A stretch of 64,000 nt of DNA from an uncultured Gemmatimonadales bacterium. Lineage in GTDB: Bacteria; Gemmatimonadota; Gemmatimonadetes; Gemmatimonadales; GWC2-71-9. The stretch covers positions 21,730 to 85,729 of the forward strand of contig CAVOGR010000003.1 in the NCBI GenBank assembly GCA_963695555.1, written 5' to 3'. This document shows positions 38,031-46,502 of this stretch, one piece after another. How positions within the stretch are numbered: position 1 is the first letter of the stretch; each line of letters starts with the position of its first letter. The notes under the pieces are model-generated. The model was not told where the DNA came from. It ran no database searches and was given only the letters and a program-made list of their open reading frames with translations. A program made the position numbers and the translations under genes.

Positions 38031-38150
38031 GGCACGAGGGCCCGTTCAGAGTGTCTGAACGCGCCCTCGTGCCGCCTCGAACCTTCCTGCGTCGCACTGC
38101 CCTAACGCAGGAGAGCCCGTTCAGAGTGTCTGAACGGGCCCTCGTGCCGC
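38031..38150. terminator. Duplicated hairpin (probable terminator) downstream of lipoprotein gene
   Basis: gcccgttcagagtgtctgaacg(c/g)gccctcgtgccgc occurs twice; the first copy forms a 20-bp stem with one mismatch. Confidence 0.55.
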
Positions 38151-38177: not shown

Positions 38178-39140
38178 TTACTTGACCACGGTGAGCCCGA
38201 ACGGCATGTCGAACCGTCCCACCTCGGTCACTTGCGGCTTCCCCTTGGTCGGCAGCTGGCAGAGGATCGCGGATGTGCCCTCGAGCGTCCAGGTGATGCC
38301 GTCGAGGGCATGAGCCAGCGTCAACCGGTTTCCTGTCACGTCATTATTCTCGCAATCAAAGCCGAACCTGAGGAACCAGTTGAAGCCCTTGCCGCTCGCA
38401 TCGGGCCGGACCCAGGTCACCTGGGCGCGGGTGGTCGTGGTGCTTCCCGGAACCATCAAGAGGGGCTCCACGCCAGGATCGGCCGTGCTGAAATAGCCGT
38501 CGTCGCACACATCGGCAGGCAGTCCTGGCTGATCGGGGAAATCGAAGCAGAACTTGCGGTCGCTGGTGGCGACGCGTGCATCCACGAACAGATTACCGAT
38601 CGCGAGGATGACGGCGTCGGTATACGCGCCGGCCGAATCGCTCATGACACCGTCGCCCGCTGCGTCGCGGAAGGTGGCGCTCACCGGTGTGTCGCTGGGT
38701 GCTCCCTTCTGCTTCACGCTGAAGAGTTCGGACCCGATCCCTTTCTTGCCTCGAAACGTCATGACCTCGACGTCGTACAGGGCCACGTCGGCCTCGAGCG
38801 GGATCTTGATGTGCGCCTTGAGCCGAGTGTCATCGACGAACGTCGTCGAATCGACGGTGACGAGGGACGTGCCTCCCGGTAAGACCCAGCTGGCCTCCGA
38901 GCCATCGTCGAACCCCGACCCTATGACGTCCACTGTCAGCATCGTGTCCTGCGGTGCCTCGCTGGGATCGGCCTGGTCCACGTTCACCTTGACACCCGGG
39001 CCGCCGCCGCCGCCCTTGGCGGCGAGTATGGCGGTGTCAGTCGGGCTGGTCGGCTGCGATTCGGTGCAGGCCAGGAGGCCAACCACCAGCCACCCAACGG
39101 CCACCATGCCGCGATATGGAAGAAGATGCCGCTTCGTCAT
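38178..39140 (-). CDS. Hypothetical lipoprotein with beta-rich/Ig-like domains
   Basis: LLAC lipobox, AKGGGGGPG linker; GGAGG RBS; intact 320-aa ORF. Confidence 0.8.
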   Translation of the reverse strand: MTKRHLLPYRGMVAVGWLVVGLLACTESQPTSPTDTAILAAKGGGGGPGVKVNVDQADPSEAPQDTMLTVDVIGSGFDDGSEASWVLPGGTSLVTVDSTTFVDDTRLKAHIKIPLEADVALYDVEVMTFRGKKGIGSELFSVKQKGAPSDTPVSATFRDAAGDGVMSDSAGAYTDAVILAIGNLFVDARVATSDRKFCFDFPDQPGLPADVCDDGYFSTADPGVEPLLMVPGSTTTTRAQVTWVRPDASGKGFNWFLRFGFDCENNDVTGNRLTLAHALDGITWTLEGTSAILCQLPTKGKPQVTEVGRFDMPFGLTVVK

Positions 39141-39183: not shown

Positions 39184-42176
39184 TCACAGAGTCTGTCGCT
39201 TTCTTAATGGCACGGATGTTCCCGCCCGAGTGTGCGCCTGCCGGTGGCCGTTGTAGCCGGCCAGCTGGTAGGTGGCCCAGTAATACGCGGCAGCCGTACC
39301 GCTCGTGGGCCAGCATGGCGCGCTGGGCCCGGGCCAGCGCGTGGGCGGGAGAACGTCCCGTCAAATTCCGATAGAACTGCTCGGCGAATGCCGCCGCCCC
39401 GGCGTCTTCCACCGGCCAGAGCGTCGCGATGACACTGCCCGCACCCGCGTGGAGGAACGCCTGGGCCAGAGTCGTGTAATCCTCGCCCTGCACGAAGGCG
39501 GTCGAATGGGCCGCTCCGACTCCGGTCTCACAGCCGGAGAGAAAGACCAGCTGCGCGTGGATGGGGAGGTTCAAGCAGTTCGTGCACCTCGAGTCGCCCG
39601 TCGTCCGCCGGATCGCCACCATTGTTGCGCGCCAACTCGAGCCGGGAGAACATCGGGTTCTGCGCATTCAGGATGCCGTGGGTGGCCACATGCACCAGGC
39701 CCGAACCTGCAAGCGCGGTCCGTACGGTCCGCTCGGTCGCTCGGGAACCCAGATATCGGCTGATCCTCGCGTCCTCCGCACGCACGGCCCCGACCTCGCG
39801 CCGAGTGCCGGGCAGCCGATCGGGGAACGGCGCGAAGGCCGAGACCGCGAGCGTGCCCTCCGCCTTATCGGTCTTGCGATCGGCCAGCACGGGAAGCGCG
39901 GCCGCGGAAGGGAGAACCCGCAGCGAGAAGTCCTGCACCAGGTAGCGGCCGGTGGTTCGATCCTTGAGTGCCGCAAAGGGCAGGTAGACCAGCACCTGAT
40001 GCGGCACGATCATGAGTTCATGCGCGTCGCTCAACAATCCGGCACCCAGCAGCGGCTCGATCAACGCCTCGTGCAGCGCTTCGAGCACGCGGTCGAGACG
40101 CTCCCCGCGCGCCATCGTTTCTCGCCATCAACTCGCGCGCGAGCCGCACCCGGCTGGCGACGTTCTTCACGCTGACCGGGCTCTCCAGGGCATGGACCCG
40201 ATCGCGCGTCACGAGAAAGACGACCACCTGACCTTCCAGCGGGACGAAGTACTCGATCAAGAGCTGCCCCGGACCGAGCGCCGCGCGGACAGCCGCGACA
40301 TCGGGACGAGCGGCGCCTAGGAAGGCGGCCGCATCGCGGTCCGTTTCCGCCGCCTGCACCAGGAAGCCCTCGTACTCGCGTCGGGCCCGTTTCAACCGAT
40401 CATAGAGGAACGCCAGTTCCCGCGACTCATCCGGGCTGAGGTCACTCGTAGGGGTCTCTTCGATGTAGTCGATGCTCTCCACCAGGCGGTCGATCTCGCT
40501 CAGCAACATCTCGCCGTCAGAGAAGGCCTCCGCGGGGGCGGAGTGAGCAGATGAGGCCTGTCCCGCAGCCGCCAGTCGCTCGAGCAGCACCCGTCCCCGG
40601 GCGGCGTCCGCCACGCCGAAGGCCTCGTCGATCCGACCCAGCCGAAGCAGCACCGAGATGAGGTGGGCATAGACCTCGCGCTTGTCCGCGACGAAAGCGG
40701 TCCGCAACAAGCCCGAGCTGAAGTTGCCCCGGACCCCTTCGACCGTCGCCAGGGCGCGGCGTCCGGCCACGGCGGCCTCCTGAGTCCGTCCGAGTCGCTC
40801 AAGCGCGCGCGACTCGAGCAGCCGTGCTTCCCACTCGGCGGCGTAGCCGCCGCGCGCCAAATCGGGCTCGATGCGCTCGATGACCGTGAGGACTTCACGA
40901 GGGCGCCGCTGCCGGTCCGCGATTCTGGCCTCGGTGAGACCCAGTTCGACCCGAGCGACACGCGCACCGACATCGCTCGCCACGGCTCGCGCCTCCTGCC
41001 AACCGTCGCTGGACTGCCCCGTCGCCGTCCTCGAGCCGGTCGAGGATCTCGGCCAGGATCGTGAGGTCGCCGAGCACCTCCATCGGTGCCCCAATGGCGC
41101 GATGAATCTCCAGCGCCTCGAGTGCTGATGCGCGGGCCCGATCCAAGTCTCCCAACCGGACGTGGATGTCGGCCTCGCTCCGGAGGTCTACCCCGGTCTC
41201 GAGGTCGAGTCCCAATTCGGCGTTGATGGTCTGGGCCGAGTCGTACATCTCGAGCGCACGACGGAAGTCACCTGCCGCGCGATACAGGTCGGCCATCGCT
41301 TCGAGAATGCTGGCCTGTTCCTGCTCCAGCCCCTGTCGTGTTGCCAGGGTGAAAGCGCTGTCCAGCACGACAAACGCCTGCCCCGGGTCACCCAGGGCCA
41401 TGTACGCCATCCCGAGTTGCCCCAGGGCGCTCTGGACGCCGGTGGCGTAGTCGGCGACTTGATACCGGGCGAGCGCCTGCTGAAGGAGCGGGATCGCGGC
41501 GTTGGGGTCGCCCAGTCGAATCTCGAGCATGCCGAGGTTGGTGAGTGCGTTCCCTTCGAGCCGCGCATCGCCCAGCTCGGCCATGGTAACCTGCATCGCC
41601 TCAAAGCCCGTGCGGGCCTCCCGGAATTGTCCCAGCTCGGTCTGTACCAGCGCGAGGTTGCCGAGCGCAGTGGCTGCCGCGCGACGGTTCCCCGTCTCGC
41701 TGCGCAGCGGTGCCCGCCTTCCCGAACAACAGGACCGCGTCCGAGAGCCGGTTTTCGGTCCAGGCCAGGAGTCCGAGTGCATTGTATGAGCGGAAATACT
41801 GATCGGTGAGGGCGTGTTGCTGCTTGAGGGCAAGCGCCGCCTCACCGATGCGTCTGGCCTGCTGGTGATTGCCCAGCTTGTAGTGTGCCAGTCCGATCCA
41901 GGTGAGGGCCCTCGCCTCGGCGGCTACTGCGCCCTCTTGCTTTGCCCGTTCACGCACCTGCTCCAGGATGGCCGCGGCACTGTCGAACTTGCCGGCAAAG
42001 TAGATGGCCTCGACCGCGGCAAAGACCGAATCGTATCCGCTCTGGGTCGCGACGGAGTCCGTAGCACGTCCGCCGGTGTGCAGCCCTCCCACCACCGAGG
42101 CATCCCTGGTCTGATCGGAACAGGCCAGGATGCACGAGCAAGCCAAGAGCCATGCCAAGCGGGGGTGCACGGTCAT
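39184..42176 (-). CDS. TPR-CHAT (caspase-like) protease with lipoprotein-type signal (frameshifted)
   Basis: ILAC lipobox, many TPRs (ALGNLA, ALTNLG), ARGRVLLE, IVPH..LPFAAL, catalytic HVATHG and LSGCETG, ATLWPV, YYWATY. Confidence 0.88.
39207..39237 (-). promoter_or_regulatory. Putative ECF promoter, copy A
   Basis: GCGCAC-N14-ATCCGTGCCAT upstream of the 39140 lipoprotein. Confidence 0.65.
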
Positions 42177-42747
42177 GGTCGGATGGTGAATTCCCGGACT
42201 CCCGTGGTTGACGATCGGGCATCGTCGAGGAGCGCATCGACGTACCAGTAGTACCGACTGCCGGACTTGAGGTCGACGCCACGCGGCAGCACGAGGCTCG
42301 TGTCGGACGTCTCCGCGGTCCACACCACGTCGCCATTCTCGTCCGTCACGGTCAGGACGTAGTGCGCGTTCCGTGGCCCTCGCTCCGCCACAGGAAGATC
42401 AGGCTGTCCACAGATACCGGCGTCTTCTCGGCCGGCATCACGGCGCTGAATTGTCGGACACCTTCCGTGCCTGGTCCGCGGGTGGCCATTCCGTCGGGGC
42501 GCGTTCCTTGCCCCGGGAGGAGAACGAACAGGGCCACCGCCGCGGCGGCCGCCGGAATGGCGATGGCGATCCAGCGGCGTGGCCTCGGATCCGCGGTGAG
42601 TGCCGCCGCTTCGGCCACATCCCGTCGGCATTCGGCACACCCGACGAGATGGCGCTGCGCCGCTCGATGTTCTTCCGCCGAGGCCTCGTGGGCCAGGTAG
42701 GCGGCAATGAGTTCAGGGCTCAGATGCTGAGGGTCCGTCAAGGCCAT
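42173..42747 (-). CDS. zf-HC2 anti-sigma factor with one TM and extracytoplasmic beta domain (one frameshift)
   Basis: H-x(n)-HLVGCAEC zinc motif, TM WIAIAIPAAAAAVALFVLL, C-terminal YYWYVDAL. Confidence 0.85.
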
Positions 42748-42782
42748 ATCCTCTTTCCGATAATGGTGTTCCGTCTCTTCCT

Positions 42783-42814
42783 ATGAAACGGATATGGCAG
42801 CCCTGGAGGTGCGC
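42783..42814 (-). promoter_or_regulatory. Putative ECF promoter, copy B
   Basis: GCGCAC-N15-ATCCGTTTCAT between sigma and anti-sigma. Confidence 0.65.
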
Positions 42815-42818
42815 CGGT

Positions 42819-43507
42819 TCATGGCTCCGTGATGCCATGGGCCTCGAGCCCGTCCTTGAGCTGGGCCAGGACGGCCGTCAGCCGGCGGTGCACCTGAAAG
42901 CGTGAGCGCAAGCCTATCATCGGGCCGATCTTGCCCAGCGGTACGTCATCCTCGAACCGGAGCGTCAGGAGCAGTTGATCGGCGACATCGAGTGTTGCGA
43001 CGACACTGTCTCAGCGCCGTCCGGCGTTCCTCTCTCAGGACCTCCGCGTCGGGATGGGGACGTTTCCCGTCCCCCATTTGCTCCAAGTCGATCTCTGCGG
43101 CGACGAAGTCCACCAAGTTGCGTCTCGCGACATGTTCCAGGGCCTGGGCGGGGCTCGACTCCTGCGTCCGCTTGAAGCCGACCATGGGTGTGACGGTGGT
43201 GATCCACGCACAGCCGACGCGCGACCACGACCAACCAGGTGGTGAACTTTCCCCGACCGTCTGCCGCGAAGGCACGGAGCCGGCGACATCCATCGTCACG
43301 GAGCTGGTCCAGGATAAAGGCGTAGCGATCCATGGCGCCGTCATGACTCGGCGCGGTCCTTCGGGCGACCTTGAGCAGGAGCGTGCTGTACTCGTGGAGG
43401 AACGCCGCCCACGCGTGACCGCGGGTCACATCGTCGGATGCGGCGAGCACGCCAGCCAGCTGGGGTGGGACGAATGTGGACACCTGCGACCGCCCGGGGG
43501 TCATCAC
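42819..43507 (-). CDS. ECF-type sigma-70 factor (frameshifted)
   Basis: AWAAFLHEYS..LLKVARR, GKFTTWLVVVARRLCVDHHR (sigma2); region 4 LLLTLRFEDD..GKIG..IGL..FQVHRRL. Confidence 0.85.
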
Positions 43508-43679
43508 TGCATTCCGGGTCTACACTCCGTGAGGAGATCGTAAACATGTCATGAAGAATCTTCAGTGACAGGCGAGGTGCGCGGCGCCGGGCTGGGTGTC
43601 GGAGTGACGAGGCGGACGGGCGGCCCCGCAAGGGACCGCCCGCTACCGGTTCCAACGGTACTGGTGCTCCGCTGCTCAG

Positions 43680-44276
43680 CTAGTGCAACGAGATCTGGGT
43701 GTTGTCCTTGACACCGGTATTCCCGTTGTACGTCCGATTCCAATGCGCACTGAAGGCGGCGTCGGCGCCATTGGCCAGCACCAGTGTCCCATGGGCGCGA
43801 TACCCGAAGGCGTTGGCATTCGACCGACCGGCGCGGAAGCCGAAGTTGTCGGTGTACACGAGATCAGACACTCCGGTCGCCAGCGGCTCATAGATCTCGA
43901 GGAGATCGCAGCCACTGAAGCCAGGGAACGGCCACACCGTCGTCCTGAGGTCCTTTCCCTGAGCGAGCTCGAGAGTCCCTCGGTCGCCGGGAAGGGCGAC
44001 CTCATGCATCGGCACGATATCGACGTCGAAGGTACCATTGCAGAAATCACGGGGGTCGATACCGATGAACACGAACGTCCCGTCTTCCTCGTCGGTCCAA
44101 CCGACGGCCACCGACGTTTCGCCACGCATCACGATCCCCGATTGTGCCGGCGCGTGGTCGATGGCGAACGCGGGAGCCACTGCGGCGGCGTCCGAATCCG
44201 TGGACGAAGTAGGCTGCTCGTTGCAGCCGACGATTAACACGGCCCCCAGAGCGAGTGAACAGGCAGTGGTACGCAT
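43680..44276 (-). CDS. Hypothetical lipoprotein
   Basis: IVGC lipobox; AGGAGG RBS; 198 aa. Confidence 0.78.
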   Translation of the reverse strand: MRTTACSLALGAVLIVGCNEQPTSSTDSDAAAVAPAFAIDHAPAQSGIVMRGETSVAVGWTDEEDGTFVFIGIDPRDFCNGTFDVDIVPMHEVALPGDRGTLELAQGKDLRTTVWPFPGFSGCDLLEIYEPLATGVSDLVYTDNFGFRAGRSNANAFGYRAHGTLVLANGADAAFSAHWNRTYNGNTGVKDNTQISLH

Positions 44277-44358
44277 GAGCACCTCCTGAGCAGATGGGTC
44301 AGGAAACAATCCGAGACGGCTAGATCGCGGCGTGATAACCGCCGTTCCGTCTGTTTCC

Positions 44359-44389
44359 ATGACACGGATGTGCTCGGTGGATGGTGCGC
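44359..44389 (-). promoter_or_regulatory. Putative ECF promoter, copy C
   Basis: GCGCAC-N14-ATCCGTGTCAT upstream of the 44276 lipoprotein. Confidence 0.65.
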
Positions 44390-44487
44390 ACGGCCCACCC
44401 GATGCCCGGCCGTTGTCAGCTATCAGCTATTGGCTCTCGGCAATCAGCAACGGTGGGAAGCAGAAGGGCCTGCTCCAACTCCCTGAA

Positions 44488-44612: not shown

Positions 44613-46502
44613 TCACAATCGATGGCCCTCTTCCTCCTCAGAGCCCGGGAATTGGATCACGCAATGCAGCCGCCGCAAGAACGGCTCGTCCACGCTCCGG
44701 TGCAGATTGGTGGCCAGAATCACCACCCCTTCGTACTCCTCTATCTTCTGCAGGAGATTGTCGATCTCGGGGTTGGCGTATCGGTCATGTGCGTCTCTCA
44801 CCTCGGTACGCTTGCCGAACAGGGCATCTCCCTCGTCGAAGAAGAGAACCGCCTTGGCCGCACCCGCCTTCTCGAATACCAGGGCCAGGTTCTTCTCCGT
44901 CTCGCCGATGTACTTGGACACCACCCGTGAGAAGTCGACCCGGTAAAGATCCAAGCCGAGTTCATTCGCGATGATCGCCGCCGCCATCGTCTTTCCCGTT
45001 CCAGAACCACCTGAGAAGAGTGCGGAGAGTCCCGGGCCCTGGCCGGCCTTCCGAGCAAGGGTCTGGAGTTGCTGAACCACATCTGCCGGAAGGCCTGTTT
45101 CCTCCCATGTGTGGTGGAACGCGATCTTCTCCATCAGCGTTTCAATCTTCCGATCGGATTGTGGCGTCGTGTCCGACCTGCCGAAGACACCAATCCCAGC
45201 CAAGGCCGCGCCCACAAACGGCAAGGCGAGCACCCACACGCGGAGGCCGAACCACCCGCCACCCGCTATCCCGTCCAGCGCCAGGAGCGCCAGGCCGGCG
45301 CACACCAGTGCGGCGCCGAGCACCGGTCGCCAGGCCGTGATGGGCCGCCCTGTTCCACCGCGCTCGAACCGGCCGAACACGAGCGCGAACGGAATGAGCG
45401 CCAGGGCATAGACTAGCAACCATACCGGCCGCGCCGCCCACCAGACCGCCGCTCCCGGGCGAGAGCGTCAGTCCCACGTCGCCCGCGAGGAGGGCCAGGC
45501 CGATCACGAGCGACGAGGCGGTCAAGTGCCACAGGAACACCGTCATGATCATGCCGTTCACCAGCACGGTCCAGGTCCATGGCGTCCCGCGGCGGAGCCA
45601 GCGCCGGAACGGCGATTCGATCGAGAGCAGCAGTCCGGTCTGCACGATCGCCGATTGCGAGCATCGGGAGCTTGGGCGGCAGCGTGTTGCTCACCGCCTC
45701 GCCGGGCACGCTCACCATGCTCACCGGATAGGGCCCGAACGCGACCATGCCGGCCAACAGCACCGCACCGGCGAGCGCCCATGCGAGCGCCTTCCGCGGC
45801 CCCTCGAAGTAGCCGTCCCGCCAGGCGTAGCCTAGCTGGTGCACCGCGACCCAGATGAACGCGTAGTTGAGCCAGCCGATCGAGCGGACGCCGGCGGCGA
45901 AGAACAGCGCGTCGTCGGCCACGGCGAGCAGTGCGAGCACCGCAAACGAGGCGAGCCCGAAGCGCTGCCATGCGGCGTAGGTCGCGGGCACGAGCACGAC
46001 CACCATCACATACACCGCCAGGAACCAGATCGGCACCAGCGCCACCTGGGACCCGACGCGGATCATCTCGGACTCCACACCGAGTCTACCGGCGATGGCG
46101 CCGGCGATGGCCCAGAGCAGCAGGAGCGGAAGAACCGGCCCGACCAGACGCTGGAGCCTGGAGCGGAGCCACTCGCCGTAGGTCTTACCCGAGCGCGTCG
46201 CGGACTTCCACGACACGCCGTTGGAGTAGCCGCCGACCAGGAAGAAGATCGGCATCACCTGGAACACCCAGGTGAGCCACCGGGTCCAGGGCTCGAATTC
46301 GAGCAGGCTCGCTGACCGTGGGCCGGCCATCGACCAGGTACAGCACCCCGACCATCCAGTGGCCGGTGATCACGGCGCCGATCGACACCGCGCGCAGGAA
46401 ATCGACGTAGCGATTGCGCGATTCGGGCGTGCCTGCCGCGACAGCGGCCGCACGGGACCAGAGCGTCTGCTTGGCCCGAGTGGGGGCCGCGCTCCCGCTC
46501 AC
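44613..46502 (-). CDS. Acyltransferase-3 family membrane protein (frameshifted) continuing in frame into a truncated AAA ATPase
   Basis: RNRYVDFLRA..GHW, QVMPIFFLVGG, WFLAVY; then GGSGTGKT, VVSKYIGETEKNL, LFFDEGDALFGKR, ATN. Confidence 0.75.

Follow-up and report, generated by a model that had tools for sequence, protein, structure and literature searches.

Putative promoters of an extracytoplasmic function sigma factor, on both sides of its gene in a Gemmatimonadales cassette with a separate TPR-CHAT lipoprotein

Promoters read by sigma factors of the extracytoplasmic function (ECF) type, local regulons and anti-sigma genes under the control of the sigma factor are textbook principles. Among the described systems (statements refer to the available parts of the cited papers), DdvS/DdvA of Myxococcus xanthus combines an ECF sigma factor, a ZAS membrane anti-sigma factor and a periplasmic TPR-CHAT part with a His-Cys dyad (PMC6061681, PMC11506125). 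The regulon is small and confined to the locus, and the DdvS motif GTAAn16CGT consists of a four-letter -35 element, a 16-nucleotide (nt) spacer and CGT (PMC6061681). In sigH-rshA of Corynebacterium glutamicum, the sigma gene is read from housekeeping promoters and the anti-sigma gene from a promoter of that sigma factor, with a proposed shut-down (PMC3489674). Todor et al. assigned at most three promoters to 47.8% of ECFs and found about half of the ECFs not autoregulated (PMC7776599). Corresponding traits were observed or are predicted for a minus-strand cassette in a 64,000-nt stretch of an uncultured Gemmatimonadales bacterium (contig CAVOGR010000003.1), which is referred to as the window. 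The cassette encodes an ECF-type sigma factor, an anti-sigma factor, a TPR-CHAT lipoprotein and two further lipoproteins, and carries three copies of a bipartite motif. Very probably, the three sites act as -35/-10 promoters for the sigma factor whose gene lies between them. That factor would transcribe the two lipoprotein genes and the anti-sigma/TPR-CHAT operon, and likely not its own gene.

Motif sites in the window and in the genome

On the minus strand, the cassette reads site C, lipoprotein 1, a hairpin, the sigma gene, site B, the anti-sigma gene, the TPR-CHAT gene with site A in its tail, and lipoprotein 2. The sites are:

44359..44389, minus strand, site C, with -35 element GCGCAC at 44389-44384 and extended -10 element ATCCGTGTCAT at 44369-44359, upstream of lipoprotein 1
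42783..42814, minus strand, site B, 4 nt past the sigma stop codon and 5' of the anti-sigma gene, with an extra spacer base near 42801-42804
39207..39237, minus strand, site A, within the C-terminal tail of the CHAT gene and 5' of lipoprotein 2

All three strings of the original prediction were found at these positions, and its distances to the start codons were confirmed (A 66 nt, B 35-41 nt, C 82 nt). Copy A is not intergenic and falls in the final codons of the TPR-CHAT gene. Transcription would start about 6 nt past CAT, near 44353 (C), 42777 (B) and 39201 (A).

The spacer had been given as N14/15. N14 was borne out, but the N15 of copy B was not, as 7/7 close relatives have N14. Comparison with five relatives gave 9 window-only indels in 3.9 kb, all of them extra bases. 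One of these lies in the spacer of copy B. The sigma, anti-sigma and TPR-CHAT frames are broken in the window, and every cassette gene is intact in relative L151. Runs X1, X2, X8 and X3 have one base fewer at 42801-42804; X4, X6 and X10 span these positions without a gap among the rows listed (32 and 56 further rows exist). The extra bases, including the 15th spacer nucleotide of copy B, were likely inserted by the assembly. As read from the relatives, the corrected motif is GCGCAC-N14-ATCCGT, i.e. GCAC-N17-CGT. A downstream string, AGACGGAAC, had also been described as shared. It is present after B and C, but with up to 2 mismatches follows only 9/170 family sites, and was rejected as part of the motif owing to this poor conservation.

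Occurrence of the motif at background frequency had been named as a point that would speak against a regulon. The strict pattern gave 3 matches in the whole genome (assembly of 3.57 Mb, 87% complete), every one within the sigma locus, and none in 100 shuffled versions of the window. Because the strict pattern was derived from the sites themselves, an independent matrix was used as a fair test; it was derived from 22 sites in 16 further loci, with the 94%-identical nearest relative excluded. The three sites ranked 1, 2 and 5 genome-wide (28.2, 27.7 and 23.0 bits). Site C was first and site A second; site C is conserved in L151, L071, L072, L153, L154 and L032. The total of 94 matches with at least 13 bits was at shuffle level (100-115 in codon-shuffled genomes). 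Six other top matches were checked and all overlap long open frames; two of them were also found in G035, a genome of the same genus without a match to the sigma factor. The regulon was read as local because the other top matches are coding and two recur in G035. A fourth, relaxed match (C1:197830-197859) sits within a long open frame, presumably an rsmB-like gene, and was rejected as a regulon site. No remote regulon sites were found beyond the locus in this 87%-complete genome. As far as the assembly shows, the regulon is local and has three promoters.

Motif placement across the family and covariation with sigma residues

Relatives of the cassette are almost all from Gemmatimonadota. The sigma factor is carried by 47/401 genomes of the class, with at most 4 copies per genome. 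From 200 loci, 137 with less than 80% sigma identity were kept. A two-block matrix was trained from a weak GCA/CGT seed on the gaps between sigma and anti-sigma genes only, with four-fold cross-validation, and sites of at least 12 bits were counted. The trained consensus was CGCA[A/C]-N14/15-TCCGTKYCAT, equal to GCA[A/C]-N16/17-CGT, the two spacings being represented by 81 and 45 training sites. Sites were present in 113/132 gaps and at 57/79 CHAT ends, and in only 6/118 regions before the sigma gene. Controls scored in 2/112 regions further upstream, 3/132 and 1/81 coding regions, 2/132 gaps on the antisense strand and 0/132 shuffles. Of the regions preceding the sigma gene, 10/118 scored on the reverse strand, where divergent targets lie. 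The gap site begins a median of 9 nt past the sigma stop codon.

It had also been noted that only GCGCAC, with no match to the -10 element, precedes the sigma gene. This agrees with the family, in which absence of the site at this place is the rule. The lone GCGCAC at 43582 scored -3.0 bits, was kept in 2/8 of the closest relatives aligned, and was rejected as a half-site.

The 57 sites at CHAT ends comprise 11 intergenic sites, 4 across the stop codon, 26 in the variable tail and 16 over conserved PFYW codons; with these 16, coding constraint contributes in part to the number. In L104, L145, L095, L107, L229 and others, the promoter lies over (H/D)PFYW codons of a His-less CHAT subtype of about 1075 amino acids. 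TAT is used in 13/16 of the PFYW-overlapping sites against a background of 31%, a figure that score-based selection makes partly circular. Such a site is possibly a dual-coded promoter.

Elsewhere in the loci, 65 further sites of at least 17 bits were found, compared with 8 matches in shuffles. An open reading frame with a lipobox (own lipobox pattern) follows 42/65 of them and 14/685 random positions. From 73 lipobox-selected targets, one mis-called CHAT and two from the nearest relative were removed; 45 of the remaining 70 have no Pfam family, and the others are mostly Ig-like or beta-propeller proteins.

The copies might instead have arisen by chance or be left over from a local duplication, without a promoter role, in a locus that is possibly a decaying pseudogene cluster. 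The motif was defined after the copies had been seen, B and C share additional downstream letters in a duplicate-like manner, three window genes are frameshifted and site A lies in coding sequence. However, this is contradicted by the motif placement across the family: the elements are kept and the spacers differ in loci whose sigma identity falls as low as 36%. The uniformly extra bases of the window also contrast with intact relatives. This explanation is hardly credible.

The elements also vary together with the sigma factor. Covariation of the -31 base (the last of GCA[A/C]) is strongest with sigma residues 201 and 205; for the -16 base it is strongest with residue 111. With R201, -31 is C in 15/16 gap sites, compared with 2/96 without it; at CHAT ends, which were unused for column choice, the values were 9/9 and 0/48. 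H/N205 goes with -31 C in 13/13 cases. R111 goes with -16 G in 59/67 gap sites (3/45 without R111) and in a further 24/31 (1/26). In tree simulations taking the best of 650 column/residue features per run, the observed values were reached in 1/2000 (-31) and 0/2000 runs (-16). R201 changes just 3 times on the sigma tree. The window sigma factor has R201, H205 and Q111 and therefore predicts its own GCAC...ATCCGT variant; its three sites have GCAC and -16 A. In the structure model, residue 201 opens the sigma4 recognition helix and residue 111 lies just past the sigma2.4 helix. D101-x-x-R104 is invariant in the family sigmas and presumably fits the DxxR motif that reads CG. Residue 205 is taken to be the equivalent of RpoE Arg171, from an alignment with SigW and the presumed RpoE numbering. 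The Arg171-equivalent residue sets the -31 base (PMC7776599). In the cassette, the sigma4 recognition helix (201-206) would read GCAC and the DxxR helix CGT, and residue 111 would set the -16 base of the extended -10 element.

Another sigma factor might read these promoters, or the sites might be operators of an unrelated regulator, with the adjacent sigma factor a mere neighbour. The genome has 16 other sigma-70 region-2 matches (17 in all), and CGT -10 cores are common to many ECF promoters (PMC6061681). Tests on independent pairs were not significant, with 3 and 7 supported pairs and none opposite, and were underpowered. On the other hand, the top covarying residues of the 650 features map to the recognition helix of the adjacent sigma factor and beside its sigma2.4 helix. 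Paralogous cassettes of one genome bear different variants: in G088, the R201 paralog has GCAC twice and a V201 paralog GCAA. Five genomes without a sigma match show background only; 2 of the 3 matches in G035 are the coding-sequence matches of the source genome. Reading by another factor is accordingly considered very improbable.

The sites thus combine bipartite elements 16-17 nt apart with a variable spacer, a sense-strand position a short way upstream of genes, and covariation with the cognate sigma factor, as expected for ECF promoters. Their geometry agrees with that of the DdvS motif (PMC6061681). The original reading as cognate promoters of both lipoprotein genes and of the anti-sigma/protease operon is supported by placement in more than 100 diverged loci, lipoprotein enrichment and residue covariation, all at the level of sequence.

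Cassette genes, proposed circuit and surroundings

The remaining features of the cassette are:

43680..44276, minus strand, lipoprotein 1, 198 amino acids, lipobox LIVGC
43616..43643, minus strand, 12-bp G+C hairpin without U-run that separates lipoprotein 1 from the sigma gene
42819..43504, minus strand, ECF-type sigma-70 factor, about 220-227 amino acids, frame interrupted at extra bases near 43166 and 43006, which likely stem from the assembly
42173..42741, minus strand, anti-sigma factor, about 188 amino acids, with zf-HC2/ZAS domain, one transmembrane segment, disordered linker and Fn3-like domain, frame break near 42371
39184..42176, minus strand, exported TPR-CHAT lipoprotein, about 994 amino acids, lipobox ILAC, with His (ATHG) and Cys (LSGCET) and several extra-base frameshifts
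38178..39140, minus strand, lipoprotein 2, 320 amino acids, lipobox LLAC

An intact relative of the sigma factor (P0001) has 227 amino acids, and its model has sigma2 and sigma4 helices. Profile matches were above cut-off for TIGR02937 and Pfam region 2 and below it for Pfam region 4. The family sigma has the ECF (group 4) layout, with sigma2 and sigma4 only, about 200 amino acids and an adjoining anti-sigma gene in 97/106 loci. A conserved additional helix (RRxLxD) lies between sigma2 and sigma4 at residues 118-136 of the P0001 model. The sigma4 domain resembles SigF/FliA more than ECF structures.

The "anti-sigma-CHAT" of the original prediction turned out to be two separate genes. They are separate open reading frames in 65/65 complete loci (16/81 were dropped as broken or without a ZAS match), and the anti-sigma stop codon abuts the CHAT start in 60/65; in the window the two overlap. 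The anti-sigma linker is variable except for an arginine (Arg90) present in 51/52 proteins, which may, by analogy, serve for cutting or docking. The linker and Fn3-like part gave a weak DUF928 match below cut-off in L151 (5010-5579; E-value 0.006). No CHAT gene besides that of the cassette was found in the genome. The TPR-CHAT gene is present in 69/77 loci with more than 5 kb downstream; H831 and C880 are invariant in 33/33 CHAT domains of the window's subtype. A pseudo-protease subtype, seen in 23/79 loci, has His replaced by Y/F/S/R/L, an LSAC motif and no lipobox; its operon, promoter and the Arg of its anti-sigma factor are unchanged. In L225 and L187 (also L141, L146, L108, L112 and L220) the promoter lies behind the sigma gene and TPR-CHAT is absent; in the first two, another site lies upstream of a gene for a 509-amino-acid membrane protein.

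Lipoprotein 1 had no Pfam or NCBIfam match, and its Atlas matches were all below 0.9; a homolog follows the same site in L032. Homologs of lipoprotein 2 are present in 46/77 loci with more than 5 kb downstream. Its N-terminal domain may be Ig/TIG-like, a weak lead (NCBIfam below cut-off, Atlas TIG 0.83). Neither lipoprotein was explained by the Atlas and family searches. Contigs of 90-95%-alike relatives span the cassette in RNA runs X3, X6, X10 and X18; these contigs give neither start nor strand nor level, and carried-over DNA is a possible source.

In the proposed circuit, the sigma factor would come from a separate promoter, and the ZAS anti-sigma factor would keep it at the membrane. The translationally coupled TPR-CHAT protein would guard the periplasmic part of the anti-sigma factor and, on an envelope signal, release it or cut it at linker Arg90. 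An intramembrane protease would then free the sigma factor, an RseP-type step by analogy with PMC11506125. A pulse of lipoprotein synthesis would follow, and the circuit would then shut itself off. Since the inhibitor would be expressed from site B and the sigma factor would not, the feedback is predicted to be negative, as has been proposed for sigH-rshA (PMC3489674).

Several points weigh against cognate promoters in such a circuit. The promoter call itself is made from sequence. Of the CHAT-end sites, 46/57 overlap coding sequence, 16 of them PFYW codons. L051 (R201, GTAA) and L105 (P201, GCAC) are exceptions to the residue rule. In 23/79 family CHAT domains the catalytic His is missing and the layout is kept, so cleavage by CHAT cannot be universal and clamping must serve there. 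A housekeeping promoter before the sigma gene is clear in 8/126 family loci, the same rate as on the reverse strand, and none of the sigma-70 type was called when looked for before the window's sigma gene.

Site C also points at the sigma gene via lipoprotein 1, so that read-through and positive autoregulation are conceivable in the window even with cognate promoters. Site, lipoprotein 1 and sigma gene are co-directional, the hairpin between them lacks a U-run and was not called as an intrinsic terminator, and the 6/118 loci with a site directly before the sigma gene fit such autoregulation, as does the uncalled sigma-70-type promoter. However, only 4/137 loci have a co-directional site at a distance of 250-1700 nt upstream of the sigma gene, and L075 and L031, close relatives without lipoprotein 1, have TTGACA-N16/17-TACGAT before the sigma gene. 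The hairpin is conserved (fold z -2.3 in the window, -3.0 in L151) and possibly blocks read-through. Autoregulation by read-through is considered unlikely, though clearly less so than the two rival explanations above. The reading of cognate promoters that spare the sigma gene was retained.

More tentatively, and rather doubtfully as a whole, the cassette may represent an unclassified Gemmatimonadota ECF family with a built-in off-switch. Its promoter would lie behind the sigma gene, a separate CHAT lipoprotein would cut (if His-less, clamp) the anti-sigma factor at the invariant linker Arg, and a 201/205 + 111 code would insulate up to 4 paralogous cassettes per genome.

Similarity to 94-95% identical relatives (L151, L071, runs X1 and X2) ends at window position 44391, 2 nt upstream of the site C -35 element. 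In L151 and X1 it also ends at 38107, at a palindrome after lipoprotein 2, and the context of the cassette differs there. L153 shares the window's genes upstream of the cassette. The module seems to move with the promoter as its edge. The long palindrome is present in two copies (38153-38105 and 38076-38031; z -4.0) and is similar to repetitive extragenic palindromes or terminators. A short GGAGTAG-type tandem run at 37995-37940 draws unrelated contigs in all four RNA runs. At 44613-45419, an AAA ATPase domain is in frame with a membrane segment seemingly of the upstream gene; PADLOC IetA matches there are probably generic AAA similarity.

For a widespread, little-studied cassette of a poorly cultured phylum, the analysis yields a promoter precise enough to test, a switch of specificity that is predicted, and a place where the anti-sigma factor may be cut. 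It adds counts for the motif's position behind the sigma gene, a code of sigma residues, a corrected spacer and an arginine kept in the linker. Promoter searches restricted to regions upstream of sigma genes would miss the motif.

Comparison with known systems

No description of the cassette or the motif was found in the literature searched, which left out most subscription papers. PADLOC gave no match for the sigma factor, the anti-sigma factor or the two lipoproteins. ECF54 genes likewise adjoin TPR-CHAT genes, and the three mentions of CHAT in the available part of the supplement all concern ECF54 (PMC7826278). Assignment of the cassette sigma to ECF54 was rejected; as described in the available text, that group is restricted to Actinobacteria, has no anti-sigma factor and has the motif GTATCAG/CTCC (PMC7826278).

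In Craspase (Csx29-Csx30-sigma) of type III-E CRISPR systems, a TPR-CHAT protease acts on a putative anti-sigma factor (PMC11506125). The cassette CHAT domain matched Csx29 with an E-value of 5e-11, below the cut-off, and the dyad aligns. Craspase is cytoplasmic, RNA-guided and CRISPR-linked, whereas the cassette protein is exported and no cas genes were seen. The sigH-rshA system differs by a cytoplasmic redox anti-sigma factor, a global regulon of dozens of genes and, in the text available, no CHAT partner (PMC3489674). Compared with Todor et al., the strongest signals of the cassette are residue 201, one turn earlier and next to a one-residue insertion, and 111 with -16, which are not among the pairs named in the text available (PMC7776599). 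If true, the code would add a new letter to ECF-DNA recognition.

The anti-sigma profile matches the DdvA ZAS domain (E-value 4e-4), and the DdvA TPR-CHAT was absent from 9 PDB matches of the CHAT domain and from the best 60 of 106 profile matches. DdvA is a single ZAS-TM-TPR-CHAT polypeptide, whereas in the cassette the genes are separate but coupled, and an Fn3-like domain and a lipoprotein signal are present. The ddvS gene is read from its own promoter; in the cassette, the -35 element is GCA[A/C] and a site precedes the sigma gene in few loci. The targets are CBASS and CRISPR genes there and lipoproteins here (lipobox-selected targets were scanned). The DdvA linker has been proposed as cut site, which is unproven (PMC11506125). 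With the split layout, protease and substrate could be purified apart, unlike the fused DdvA, and the cassette would, if the reading is true, offer the simplest system in which to test a site-1 function of CHAT domains, which is unproven. By analogy, the cassette likely works like a split DdvS/DdvA, but stands apart from the DdvS/DdvA family in fusion, -35 element, self-promoter and targets.

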